Assembly (NCBI GenBank): GCA_000004695.1
Contig: CM000155.2
Coordinates: forward strand, 2,080,001 to 2,144,000
From: Dictyostelium discoideum
Taxonomy: Eukaryota
Direction of reading: 5' to 3'
Length of the DNA stretch: 64,000 nucleotides
Shown: positions 20,987-31,089 of the stretch, one piece after another
Layout: each line of letters starts with the position of its first letter
Position numbering within the stretch: the stretch's first letter is position 1
Made by a program: the position numbers and the translations under genes
Notes under the pieces: generated by a model
What the model saw: only the letters and a program-made list of their open reading frames with translations
The model's database searches: none
What the model was told of the DNA's origin: nothing

Positions 20987-22786
20987 ATGAAACTTATATT
21001 AATTTATTTAATTTTAGTTTTTAATTTATTTAATTTTATAAATTGCCAAAATATATTAAAAGTTTCAAATGTAAGATTTGCCCAAACTCATGTAATACCA
21101 ATTGAAGGAAAATCATGGAATATTCAAGGATCAACTAAACATATGTCGATAGTTGGTAAAAGAAGAGCATTACTATTAGCAAGTTTTCAAGACCAAAATT
21201 TAAGTTATTTCGCTACAATTTGGTATGATGGTGGAAAGGTTGGTATGATTCAATTAAATGATCCAAGTCAATTACCACTAACCGAAGATAATGGTGAAAA
21301 GTATTCAAAAGTTCACCATTCTGGAATGATTCCAAAGGAATGGGTAAGAGTAGGAATGAAAATTCAATTCTCTTCATTTGGTGGGATAAATGGTACTGAA
21401 GTATCAGATATTCTAAGTCCAGATGTTGGTCAGGATTATACTTTGAAAATGTGGATATTACCATTTTACTTATTTGGTGCAAATGATACTAACACTCAAC
21501 CATTCTCAAAGACAAAAGGAATTGATTCAGGGATTTCTAAAGAATTAATTGAAAAATGGTCATGTTCTGATTTACAAGCTGATAATCATCCAATCCAAAA
21601 AATTGATTGGCCATACTTTGTAATGGAACCAAGAAGTGGTAATCCTGCAATGGTAATTACAAATTCTGATCAAAAGAAAGATGGTTATGCAATTATGAAT
21701 GGTGTTTTGAGTATACTATGGCTACTTAGAGGAATGTTTGGTGAATCATCTTCATCAATTCAAATTTATTCACCACTTTTACATTTGGATGCAAAAGGTA
21801 GGTATGCAGATACTTACGGGGGGCTAGGTGGTAGTTCAGCAGGTACTGGAAATCATAGATTCACTGGTATCTTTATTCATGAACAAGGTCATGCAATGGG
21901 TTTGCCACATGCTGGTGAAGCATATGATAATAAAAGAAAATACCCGTACAAACAAGGAAGTTTATCAGGATCAGAATGGGGTTTCGACGCAAATCATAAT
22001 GAATTTTTGGGTACTTTTATTCCTCCAACTGCAGAACTTTACAAAACTTGTAAAAAAAATTCAATCATTGATAGCAAAGGTCGTTGTGTTAAGCAAAGTG
22101 TTATGCAAAGTGGTGCTGGTGATCAGTCGTCAAAATATAGGTATAGTATGTTTGCAGATTTTGAAATGACAACAATTCAAAATTATTTTAAAAATTCAAT
22201 TTATTATGACGAAACAAATGGTAAATATAAAAAATGGAATGATACATCTAAATCTTACTATGCGTATAAACCAATTACTAAAGAAAAAGGATTTGAAGGT
22301 GTTGATGAAAATACACCAATTGAAAGAAATGTTGATATCTATTCAATAATATTCACATATAGTACTGTTGAGAAACCAAAGGTAGGGAAAATATCACAAA
22401 TTTATCCATTACTAAAATCAAAAGGTAATTTAATTAGACAATTCGATCCAACTAATAAAAAAGAAATGGATTCTGTTAATCCAAAATTGAATGGTGAATT
22501 TAAATGGTATTGCAATAGTAGTGGTTGTGATTATACAATTAGAGTTACATTTTATGATAGTTCATTAAAACATGTACTTTTACAACAGGGCAAACGTAAA
22601 TATAAATTACCAACTGGTTCTTTCAGAGATAATATAAATGATCCAAAAAGTTCTGATAGTTTCATGTTAGGTGGTGTTAATATCAAAGCAAATAAAAAAA
22701 TTAAAAAAGTTGAATTACTAGAAACTCCATTTGCATGGAATGGTATCCCAAAAAATCCAACTGTTTTAGTTTCAAAATCATTTTAA
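20987..22786 (+). CDS. Secreted metzincin-like zinc metalloprotease, paralog 1 (HEQGHAMGLPH; possibly M66/StcE-like)
   Basis: Start taken at the second ATG (MKLILIYLILVFNLFNFINC signal peptide); the first ATG at 20927 adds an unlikely K-rich leader. HExxHxxGxxH motif FIHEQGHAMGLPHAGEA. 55-65% identical to the three downstream paralogs. Confidence 0.7.
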   Translation: MKLILIYLILVFNLFNFINCQNILKVSNVRFAQTHVIPIEGKSWNIQGSTKHMSIVGKRRALLLASFQDQNLSYFATIWYDGGKVGMIQLNDPSQLPLTEDNGEKYSKVHHSGMIPKEWVRVGMKIQFSSFGGINGTEVSDILSPDVGQDYTLKMWILPFYLFGANDTNTQPFSKTKGIDSGISKELIEKWSCSDLQADNHPIQKIDWPYFVMEPRSGNPAMVITNSDQKKDGYAIMNGVLSILWLLRGMFGESSSSIQIYSPLLHLDAKGRYADTYGGLGGSSAGTGNHRFTGIFIHEQGHAMGLPHAGEAYDNKRKYPYKQGSLSGSEWGFDANHNEFLGTFIPPTAELYKTCKKNSIIDSKGRCVKQSVMQSGAGDQSSKYRYSMFADFEMTTIQNYFKNSIYYDETNGKYKKWNDTSKSYYAYKPITKEKGFEGVDENTPIERNVDIYSIIFTYSTVEKPKVGKISQIYPLLKSKGNLIRQFDPTNKKEMDSVNPKLNGEFKWYCNSSGCDYTIRVTFYDSSLKHVLLQQGKRKYKLPTGSFRDNINDPKSSDSFMLGGVNIKANKKIKKVELLETPFAWNGIPKNPTVLVSKSF

Positions 22787-22818
22787 AATCTTTAAAATTT
22801 AGATTTGTTGTTTATATT

Positions 22819-22880
<62 letters not shown>

Positions 22881-28210: not shown

Positions 28211-29064
28211 ATAATTTTTTTTTTTTGATAAATTTTTAAAAAATAAATAATAATAGAGTCTTAATTTTAAATTAATTTTTAAAAAACAAATATTATAATA
28301 TTTAATATATTTTTATATGTTGGTTTATTTTAAATTACATGAAATTTAAATGGGGGTATGAATGAATTTAAATAATAATAATTTGTTTTTGGAAAAATTT
28401 ATTTTTAATAATAAATAAAAAATAAAAAAAAAAGATTTATTTTTTATAATTGAACAAACAAAAATTATAATTTGTTTATTATTATTTTAAAATAATTTAA
28501 GTGTACTCTATACTATAATCTGTTTAATCTAGATTATTAAAGTAAATTGTTTGTTTTTCGTTATTTTTTTTTTTTGTTTTTTTTAATTTTTTAAAAATGA
28601 GTTTTATCTAAAGGTAATCTACCACATTCTAACCTTAATACTGGTAAATTAATATTGATTATTTTTGTGTAATTTTCTGACTTTGTAATGGGAAAAGATA
28701 AAAATCTAATTTTAGAAATAGTGGATAATAAGTTTAATATATTATTATTGTAATTTTAAAAAAAAAGGAGTTTGTTTATTTTTTTTTTTTTTTTATTCAC
28801 TTTTTTTTTTTTTCCTTTTTTTTTTTTTTCTATTCACATTTTTATTATTTATTTATTCAATTAAAAAACAAAAACACAAGCACAGAAATTTTATTTTTAA
28901 GTAATTTTAATATAGAATAACCATTTAACAATATTGTAATATGAATTTATTAACACATATATTTTAACCCCTTTTTTTTTTTTTATTTATAATTTTTCAT
29001 TTAAATAATGGTATAAAAAAAAAAAATAAAAAAAATAAAAAAAAAATAAAAAAAAAAAAAACAA

Positions 29065-31089
29065 ATGAAAATATTTATTATAAAAATAATATTAGTACTC
29101 TTTAACTATGTATTATTAAGTTATTCAATAAATCAAGATTTAAATATTTTAAATGTATATGATGTTAGATTTGCACAAACTCATGTTATACCAATTGAAG
29201 GTAAAAGTTGGATACTTAATAATAAAACCTATACATTAACGATTGTTGGTAATAGAGATTCATTGTTATTAGTTAAATTTATTGATATATCAATAACAGG
29301 AACATCATCAATCAAAACAGTAACAACAAAAACAACCAAAGAAGAAATAAAAGCAACAATATTAACAAACACATATAATGTAATGGTATGGAATAATGAT
29401 ATAGTAATGGGAACACGTTTATTAAATGATCCAAATCAATTACCACCAACAGAATCAAATGGAGAACAATATTCAAATGAACATCATAGTATAATGATAC
29501 CAAAAGAATGGGTAAAACCTGGTATGAAATTGCAATTTTTTGAAAATTCAAATAGTTTTATAAAGAGTTCAAAATTTATATTTCCAAATGTTGGTCAAGA
29601 TTATACATTAAAAATGTGGACATTACCATTTTATTTATTTGGTGCAAATGATACAAATACAAGACCATTCAATCAAACTAAAAACATTGATGATAGTATA
29701 AGTGCTGGTTTAAGTCAAGTTTATTCATGTTCAAATATTTTATCATTAAATCATCCAATTCAAAGGGTAGATTGGCCTTATTTAGTATTAGGACCTAGAA
29801 ATGGTTTACCTGGAATGTTAATTACAAATTCAGATCAAAAAAAAGATGGTTATGCAATAATGGAAGGTGTATTAAATATTTTAACAGGAATTAGAGTTGC
29901 ATTTGGTGAATCAACATCATCAATTCAAATATATGCACCATTATTACATTTAGGTGCAAATGGTAAATATGCTGATACCTATGGAGGTTTAGGGGGAAGT
30001 TCCAGAGGTACAGGAGACTATAGGTATGTAGCTCAATTGAGTTTTCTATTATAATAAACTCACTTTCAAATATTAAAACCAAATTAAAAAAAAATTAAAA
30101 ATAAACCTAAAATTTAATTCTGAATCTAATGGTATATTTTTTAATAATTTATAACCAAATTAAAATATTTATATAGATATTCTGATACATTTGTACATGA
30201 ACAAGGCCATGCTATGGGATTACCCCATGCAGGGGAAGCTTTTGCATCTGGCTCATACCCCTATGTAAATGGTAGTCTACTAGGATCAGAATGGGGTTTC
30301 GATATTAATCATTATGAATTCCTTAGTATTACCCTTTCAAATACATCAAAAAACTATAAAGGATGTGAAAAAAAGAATGTTAAAGATACACAAAATCGTT
30401 GTGTTAAACAAAGTGTTATGCAAAGTGGTGCAGGTGATAGATCATCAAATTATTTATTTAGTATGTTTTCCGATTTTGAAATGTCAATTATTCAAAATTA
30501 TTTTAAAAATTCAATTTACTATGATGAACAAATTGGAAAATATAAAAAATGGAATGAAACTATTGGTTCATATTATGAATATAAACCAATTACAAAAGAT
30601 TATGGATTCTATAGGCTAGATGATGGTATACCAATTGAAAGAGATATTGATGTCTATACAATTGTATTTACCTATAGTTTGGTTGGACCTGAACCATTAT
30701 CACAAATTTATCCATTACTTAAATCAAAAGGTAATTTAATTAGACAATTTGATCCAACTAATAAAACTGAAATGAAATTAATTACACCAAATACCGGTTC
30801 AATTCCATGGTATTGTTTTAATAGTGGTTGTGATTATACAATTAGAGTTACCTATGATGATGATTCAATTAAACATATACTCCTTCAACAAGGTAAACGT
30901 CAATATTGGAAACCAATGGGTGATTTTAAATTAAATTTTAATGATCCAACAAGTTCTGATAGTTTCTTATTAGGTGTAATAAATGTTAAAGCAATAAAAA
31001 CAATTAAAAAGGTTGAATTATTAGAAACTTTAATGGCTTGGAATGGAATATCTAAAAATTCAAAACTATTAACATTTAAATTATTTTAA
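29065..31089 (+). CDS. Secreted metzincin-like zinc metalloprotease, paralog 4. 2 exons: 29065..30023 and 30177..31089
   Basis: Exon 1 ends ...GTGDYR with donor gtatgt at 30024. Acceptor tatatag at 30176. Exon 2 continues YSDTFVHEQGHAMGLPHAGEA in phase, restoring colinearity with paralogs 1-3 (...GTGDYTYKGIFIHEQGH...). Signal peptide present; extra about 35-aa insert (ISITGTSSIKTVTTKTTKEEIKATILTN). Confidence 0.7.

Follow-up and report, generated by a model that had tools for sequence, protein, structure and literature searches.

M66 proteases are known from bacteria as mucinases that contribute to virulence, and mucin research now employs them as tools. The M66 type mucinase StcE of enterohaemorrhagic E. 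coli (PDB 3UJZ) is exported by the bacterial type II secretion system and binds mucins via non-catalytic domains. TagA of Vibrio cholerae, an M66 mucinase with a TagA domain (PF12561), is a lipoprotein. Further M66 proteases, one of which bears the UniRef name 'Dictomallein', occur in Burkholderia (including B. pseudomallei), Paraherbaspirillum, Chitinivorax, Ralstonia, Lysobacter and Polyangiaceae, some of them with added fibronectin-III or cadherin-like domains; we found no functional study of these relatives. In the three loci inspected (Paraherbaspirillum, B. pseudomallei and Lysobacter) the bacterial M66 genes are stand-alone and single-copy, and their surroundings revealed no conserved partner genes and no clue to function.

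The array described here lies on chromosome 6 of Dictyostelium discoideum, a 3.6-Mb chromosome, between eukaryotic genes, and the window that we analysed is the 64,000-nucleotide stretch that contains it. Its four genes are already annotated: UniProt names them Dictomallein-2 to -5 and assigns them to M66, while the NCBI label is still 'hypothetical protein'. The sequences are identical to Dictomallein-2/-3/-4/-5 of D. discoideum AX4, and the window is that locus. Dictomallein-1 (dtmlA, DDB_G0288219), an unlinked paralog of the four, appears as 'Dictomallein-1 (EC 3.4.24.-)' in the listed part of a published RNA-seq table.

Structure of the array

The features of the array and its flanks, in window positions, are as follows.

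19022–20605, + strand: AFG1-like ATPase gene, upstream flank outside the cluster; syntenic boundary common with D. firmibasis
20987–22786, + strand: gene 1, DDB_G0292822, Dictomallein-2 (Q54CQ0); 599 aa, single exon; leader 1–20, Ig-like N domain, M66 domain 100–406, C-terminal beta domain; HExxHxxGxxH from residue 298
23859–25652, + strand: gene 2, DDB_G0292824, Dictomallein-3 (Q54CP9); 597 aa, single exon; M66 domain 99–408, zinc motif from residue 301
25759–26118, + strand: truncated 5' pseudo-copy of gene 3, a recent tandem duplication of ~360 bp
26426–28210, + strand: gene 3, DDB_G0292826, Dictomallein-4 (Q54CP8); 594 aa, single exon; M66 domain 98–407, zinc motif from residue 300
29065–30023, + strand: gene 4 exon 1, DDB_G0292828, Dictomallein-5 (Q54CP7); codons 1–320, codon 320 split
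30024–30176, + strand: gene 4 intron, 153 nt, GT..AG (GTATGT...TATAG), phase 2
30177–31089, + strand: gene 4 exon 2, starting ...YSDTFVHEQGHAMGLPH and ending at the stop codon
31344–33461, − strand: Na+/H+ exchanger gene, downstream flank outside the cluster; syntenic boundary common with D. firmibasis

The ends of the array are exact: gene 1 starts with its ATG at 20987, and the stop codon of gene 4 ends at 31089. A tblastn search of the whole 64 kb window recovered four full-length paralogs on the same strand and no fifth full copy, and with lengths of 594–623 aa these are the four same-strand genes of about 600 aa that an earlier note on this DNA had described. The spacers between successive genes measure 1072, 773 and 854 bp and correct the 1–1.3 kb given there. 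Pairwise protein identity of the paralogs is 55–73% by tblastn, far above chance, and genes 2–4 are 63–74% identical to gene 1 in a MAFFT alignment. Searches of the cluster and its surroundings yielded neither a tRNA nor an Rfam family.

The spliced model of gene 4 (623 aa) is exactly the deposited protein. Its intron, which is missing from the D. firmibasis ortholog, precedes the HExxH motif by seven codons, and its N domain carries a 25-aa Ser/Thr/Lys-rich insertion compared with genes 1–3. The pseudo-copy spans the upstream region of gene 3 and its first 35 codons (ATG at 26014; 94% amino acid identity) and stops at 26118/26119, at the start of the following repeat unit. Aside from this duplication, intergenic similarity within the array is limited to AT-rich low-complexity sequence.

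Family assignment and conserved residues

The Pfam M66 profile (PF10462) is covered over its full length (1–306 of 306) in genes 1–3, with scores of 470–485 bits against a cut-off of 20.6, and in gene 4 the match is spread over both exons. StcE is the sole significant sequence match in the PDB and by far the best fold match of an AlphaFold2 model of the gene 2 protein, whose catalytic domain is predicted to adopt a StcE-like three-dimensional fold. The M66/StcE-like assignment of the earlier note is upheld by these matches; NCBIfam contained no match for any of the four proteins. Judged by sequence, the four genes encode M66 (StcE/TagA-type) zinc metalloproteases that are predicted to be catalytically active.

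All four genes carry HEQGHAMGLPH, the extended zinc motif HExxHxxGxxH with the catalytic Glu. The common motif reported earlier is shared as the core HEQGHAMGLPHAGEA, which is invariant across the four genes, but not as the 17-mer FIHEQGHAMGLPHAGEA, which is exact in genes 1 and 2 only; the variant motifs start with FFHEQ... in gene 3 and FVHEQ... in gene 4. H301, E302, H305 and H311, which align with the StcE motif, are invariant across 52 homologs, as is the Met of the putative Met-turn. The conserved Cys and Trp positions were also correctly recognized, the residues invariant in all four proteins including 5 Cys and 9 Trp.

The leader varies somewhat more than had been described, in that the MKLILI start is found in genes 1 and 2 but reads MKLVLI in gene 3 and MKIFII in gene 4, and the INC end is common to genes 1–3 but not gene 4. 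Heuristic criteria nevertheless favour the N-terminal signal peptide proposed earlier: position 2 of the leader is basic, its h-region is 12 residues long (KD 2.7–3.4) and positions −3/−1 are small or neutral (I-N-C in genes 1–3), and a heuristic scan of the four proteins detected no TM-like or other hydrophobic segment after it. In the gene 2 model the leader is a helix of lowered confidence (block-mean pLDDT 58–70).

Comparison with StcE, TagA and the bacterial relatives

The dictomalleins are 16–21% identical to StcE and ~270–300 residues shorter, with a shorter and different C-terminal domain. The INS domain of StcE (chain residues 101–219) is missing, and W366, H367 and Y457, which line its active site, are replaced by Met, Val and Ala. 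The M66 catalytic domain is held in common with TagA. Weak matches to the TagA domain occur in the C-terminal region of gene 3 (residues 445–550) and of 7 of 52 family members, all of them short of the Pfam cut-off of 25 bits (17.5 bits). Given the lack of INS, the altered active-site lining and a C-terminal domain with sub-threshold TagA similarity, the analogy with mucinases is weak. The predicted signal peptide is of eukaryotic type, in contrast to the type II export of StcE, and lacks the lipobox context expected of a lipoprotein such as TagA. The bacterial M66 relatives have the same three-domain architecture as the dictomalleins, with 37–45% identity over ~95% of the length, and share with them the zinc motif and four Cys, all invariant.

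Phylogeny, synteny and selection

Among the best 120 matches, every named eukaryote is a dictyostelid and the remainder are bacterial or metagenomic, which is consistent with the claim that the family is rare in eukaryotes. Trees were constructed by a single method, neighbor joining, with bootstraps obtained by a fast distance method (200 replicates). The dictyostelid sequences are monophyletic in 200 of 200 bootstraps, one EukProt sequence also falling inside their clade; bacteria are the next relatives, and the bacterial sister group of the clade is a polytomy. The array copies pair 1:1 with orthologs in D. citrinum, D. dimigraforme and D. firmibasis, in clean groups supported by 185–200 of 200 bootstraps. 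The locus is syntenic with that of D. firmibasis, flanking genes included, and recurs in independent assemblies of several species. Copy number is three in D. firmibasis, four in D. discoideum and one, at another locus, in D. purpureum. GC content is 19–29% and codon use is Dictyostelium-style. Dictyostelid monophyly, the restricted eukaryotic range, the intron, the AT-rich coding sequence and the synteny together indicate that the genes were probably transferred horizontally, long ago, from a bacterium to a dictyostelid ancestor.

Whole-gene dN/dS is 0.29–0.39 for paralogs and 0.11–0.27 for orthologs, with dS taken from the Nei–Gojobori method, which is not reliable at such extreme AT bias. 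The highest omega of any 30-codon window is not above 0.71, and the N-terminal Ig-like domain is under less constraint (0.43–0.70). Within the gene, omega is at its minimum around the zinc motif (0.09–0.12), consistent with an active site that is being maintained. With 1:1 orthologs, synteny and these ratios, the earlier view of a rapidly evolving cluster is not sustained; as far as the coding sequences indicate, the array is conserved rather than fast-evolving and its copies are under purifying selection.

Our search for publications mentioning the four genes (dictomallein names, DDB_G ids, accessions, Dictyostelium M66) found none. Neither the supplements of one D. discoideum bacteria-response RNA-seq study nor the rows listed of a cln5 RNA-seq table contain the genes; the unlinked dtmlA is present in the latter.

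Discussion

These results lead us to propose that the locus very probably holds four intact secreted-type M66 protease paralogs of ancient bacterial origin, tandemly amplified and kept by purifying selection. Each ~600-aa protein consists of a predicted cleavable signal peptide, a small Ig-like beta-sandwich, the M66 domain and a ~190-aa beta-rich C-terminal domain. In the metzincin-like catalytic domain the three His of HEQGHAMGLPH would coordinate zinc, with the Glu serving as general base. After entry into the secretory pathway, the proteins would function as zinc endopeptidases, either extracellularly or within the endo-lysosomal/phagosomal lumen. By analogy with StcE and TagA, their likeliest substrates may be densely glycosylated (mucin-like) or surface proteins, supplied by prey microbes or by the amoeba's own matrix. 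Feeding on bacteria or defence against them, raised in the earlier note, would be candidate roles. The gene would have passed from a soil bacterium to a dictyostelid ancestor as a complete three-domain unit and gained its eukaryotic features later, namely AT-rich codons, a eukaryotic-type leader and, in one copy, an intron. Tandem amplification at this locus presumably predates the split of D. discoideum and D. firmibasis, after which one more duplication would have produced genes 1 and 2, and purifying selection has since preserved all copies.

An arms race with bacterial prey or pathogens, in which the locus would be shaped by diversifying selection and rapid copy-number turnover, could be read from the tandem arrangement of secreted-type proteases, the less constrained Ig-like domain, the variable copy number and the partial duplication that arose very recently upstream of gene 3. 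We consider it unlikely, as whole-gene and window omega values are low, ortholog groups are clean and the flanks are syntenic. It is considerably less probable still that the proteins are non-catalytic, either binding or lectin-like or the products of decaying pseudogenes with HExxH as a relic. In favour of this reading, our search turned up no demonstration of activity, the RNA-seq supplements and rows checked contain no expression record for the four genes, and StcE, too, has non-catalytic domains that bind mucins; against it, the zinc ligands, catalytic Glu and putative Met-turn Met are invariant over 52 homologs and omega is lowest at the motif, and we reject the pseudogene version on these grounds and on the four intact ORFs. 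The bacterial affinity of the closest relatives beyond dictyostelids might also raise the suspicion of bacterial contamination or an assembly artefact, which is effectively refuted by base composition and codon use, the spliceosomal intron of gene 4, the chromosomal setting among eukaryotic genes and the independent assemblies.

Within the preferred reading of retained M66 proteases, a more tentative and rather doubtful extension is that the dictomalleins form a functionally distinct M66 branch, captured by a soil amoeba from soil bacteria and then expanded, with a substrate other than animal-type mucin. The missing INS domain, the different C-terminal domain and the different active-site lining would be marks of such a branch. 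If so, the substrate would be specific to dictyostelid multicellularity or to micro-predation in soil; candidates would be surface glycoproteins of prey cells and mucin-like proteins from the sheath or spore coat of the amoeba itself. The four paralogs would then represent a bacterial 'weapon' that was domesticated and whose specificities became sub-functionalised. The array does not overturn current views and is a genome feature already catalogued; five copies kept under purifying selection in a bacterivore since an ancient bacterial transfer would nonetheless make a tidy example of gene domestication, and the array may be a source of glycoproteases with new specificities.

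Organization of the array

Four intact paralogous genes occupy positions 20987-31089, as had been proposed from the sequence alone. When each product was compared by tblastn with the whole 64-kb window, exactly four full-length copies were found, together with one partial copy, a 35-codon fragment at 26014-26118. The four translations, including that of spliced gene 4, match deposited D. discoideum AX4 proteins at every residue (DDB_G0292822, DDB_G0292824, DDB_G0292826 and DDB_G0292828, on the 3.6-Mb chromosome record). UniProt names these proteins Dictomallein-2, -3, -4 and -5 (DTML2-DTML5), and NCBI still labels them 'hypothetical protein'. 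Since the products are identical to named deposited proteins, the array is a rediscovery of annotated genes and is already known as an annotated feature.

Genes of the array and its flanks
19022-20605, AFG1-like ATPase, upstream flank
20987-22786, + strand, gene 1, 599 aa
23859-25652, + strand, gene 2, 597 aa
26426-28210, + strand, gene 3, 594 aa
29065-30023 plus 30177-31089, + strand, gene 4, 623 aa
31344-33461, minus strand, Na/H exchanger, downstream flank

The intergenic spacers measure 1072, 773 and 854 bp, and searches found no tRNA or Rfam RNA within the array or next to it. The window has an extremely high AT content (11-34% GC per 2-kb block) and its ORFs contain poly-Asn runs, both hallmarks of Dictyostelium. 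A mechanical ORF call extends gene 1 upstream to a TTG at 20927 (MILIYFFLIVGGKKKKKKNR...), adding 20927-20986; because the deposited protein begins at ATG 20987, these added bases are an artefact of applying bacterial start-codon rules. A protein of D. cf. discoideum in the Dictomallein-3 cluster, KAM9994300.1, has 1222 aa, about double the usual length, probably because the annotation pipeline merged two adjacent tandem copies in its assembly.

A recent local tandem duplication lies upstream of gene 3 at 25759-26530. Its units (about 25759-26118 and 26119-26530; ~360-410 bp) are 97-99% identical and carry the upstream region of gene 3 with its first 35 codons. The truncated pseudo-start at ATG 26014, ~410 bp upstream of the true gene 3 ATG, reads MKLVLIFLIINFFLFINCENLIKVLDVRLAQTHII and then falls out of register. 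Within each unit, a poly-C run leads into (CA)n (about C12-ACACACA; 25891-25910 and 26251-26266). This G+C island is striking, the surrounding intergenic sequence being otherwise >85% A+T. The duplicated promoter could alter expression of gene 3.

Family, fold and active site

The assignment to the M66 family, suggested in the earlier note, holds. Genes 1-3 match Pfam Peptidase_M66 (PF10462) over the whole model (1-306/306; E 3.8e-141 to 7.9e-146), and the two exons of gene 4 match model positions 1-195 and 204-306. The only significant PDB sequence match is StcE (3UJZ), the M66 mucinase of enterohaemorrhagic E. coli, with E 1.9e-12 for a single protein as query and 3.6e-29 for a 52-sequence family profile. 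HEQGHAMGLPH aligns to H-D-VGHNYGLGH of StcE, which was crystallised as the E447D mutant. AlphaFold2 modelled gene 2 from the 52-sequence alignment with very high confidence (mean pLDDT 94, pTM 0.90). The active site is preserved: H301, E302, H305, H311 and the downstream M375 are invariant in 52/52 dictyostelid and bacterial homologs, as are four cysteines (C357, C369, C507, C512). Whether HExxH might lie outside a protease fold was checked, and the M66 profile, the StcE match, the confident model and the invariant zinc-site residues together place it within one.

All four proteins begin with a hydrophobic leader (residues 1 to ~20) with Lys at position 2 and a mean h-region KD of 2.7-3.4; in genes 1-3 the predicted cleavage site follows I-N-C. 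In the gene 2 model the leader is a helix of reduced confidence (block-mean pLDDT 58-70). No further TM-like segment was found in any of the four, which have 5-8 N-glycosylation sequons apiece. The leader is followed by a beta-sandwich of ~80 residues aligning to the N-terminal Ig-like domain of StcE, the M66 domain (about residues 99-408) and a beta-rich C-terminal region of ~190 residues. Structural matches of this last region are generic beta-sandwich or CBM-like, and matches to the TagA domain are sub-threshold only (gene 3; 7 of the 52 family members). In gene 4 the Ig-like domain contains a 25-residue Ser/Thr/Lys-rich insertion (ISITGTSSIKTVTTKTTKEEIKATIL; about residues 76-100) that is absent from genes 1-3; despite this insertion, gene 4 shows the strongest conservation of the four genes across species (omega 0.11).

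The dictomalleins differ from StcE in lacking its INS insertion of ~120 residues (chain 101-219). The active site of StcE is lined by W366, H367 and Y457, and mutation of W366 or H367 strongly reduces mucinase activity (PMC11018308). In dictomalleins the residues aligned with these three are Met, Val and Ala; as similarity around W366/H367 is low, this counts as a hint and not as a test.

Origin and duplication history

Among the best 120 matches, full-length homologs (~95% coverage) come from D. citrinum, D. dimigraforme, D. firmibasis, D. purpureum, Tieghemostelium, Cavenderia and Polysphondylium. Bacteria supply the next-best matches, at 37-45% identity: Chitinivorax, Paraherbaspirillum (UniRef name 'Dictomallein'), Oxalobacteraceae, Ralstonia, Burkholderia including B. 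pseudomallei, Lysobacter, Polyangiaceae and Meiothermus, along with numerous unnamed metagenomic proteins in the same identity range. A neighbor-joining tree bootstrapped 200 times places the dictyostelid sequences together with one unnamed EukProt entry in a single monophyletic group (200/200 replicates), and the four tandem genes with their orthologs form a clade in 199/200 (ortholog groups: DTML5 and DTML4 200/200 each, DTML2 and DTML3 185/200 each). A single ancient acquisition from bacteria is the most likely source of the dictomalleins. In Paraherbaspirillum, B. pseudomallei and Lysobacter the homologs are stand-alone genes with no informative neighbours.

The D. firmibasis locus has the order AFG1 ATPase, three M66 genes, and Na/H exchanger on the opposite strand, and the array in the window is flanked in the same way; the array is therefore older than the split of the two species. 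Genes 1 and 2 probably duplicated after that split, as their dS is 0.40, compared with 0.63-0.71 for each against the single D. firmibasis counterpart. D. purpureum has one copy, in an unrelated neighbourhood. The gene 4 intron (153 nt, 30024-30176, GTATGT...TATAG), with the zinc motif seven codons downstream, is missing from the D. firmibasis ortholog (12446-14194 of locus sequence L001), which aligned as a single uninterrupted HSP. Judging from this alignment, the intron is a lineage-specific gain or loss within a gene of bacterial ancestry. Taken together, the phylogeny, synteny, intron and AT-rich coding sequence show that these are resident eukaryotic genes, most likely of bacterial descent.

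Selection

The suggestion that the cluster evolves rapidly was not borne out at the level of whole genes, domains or 30-codon windows. By the Nei-Gojobori method, whose dS estimates are rough at such base composition, overall paralog dN/dS is 0.29-0.39 (M66 domain 0.24-0.32, C domain 0.26-0.53, N domain 0.43-0.70) and the ratio for ortholog pairs of D. discoideum and D. firmibasis is 0.11-0.27. In 30-codon windows pooled over all pairs the ratio peaks at 0.71 and has its minimum, 0.09-0.12, on the zinc motif. The genes are under purifying selection.

Possible function

The proteins are predicted to enter the secretory pathway and to be zinc-dependent endopeptidases, with extracellular or luminal proteins as putative targets. 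By analogy with StcE and with TagA, the M66 mucinase of Vibrio cholerae (PMC10847046), the substrates may be glycoproteins. The proteins may serve in feeding, in defence or in development. Our literature search found no paper mentioning the four genes, and they are missing from the supplement of one bacteria-response RNA-seq study. Among the rows listed in a cln5 RNA-seq table, the only dictomallein is the unlinked paralog dtmlA (Dictomallein-1), at about 1,000-2,000 counts.

Chitinolytic or predatory soil taxa are frequent among the bacteria that carry the nearest homologs (Chitinivorax, Andreprevotia chitinilytica, Lysobacter, Polyangiaceae). Their ecological overlap with soil amoebae that feed on bacteria could be relevant to the route of transfer as well as to the substrate. 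The literature search turned up no functional study of the dictomallein branch of M66, and it is in this, together with the apparent transfer from bacterium to amoeba, that the remaining interest of the array lies.
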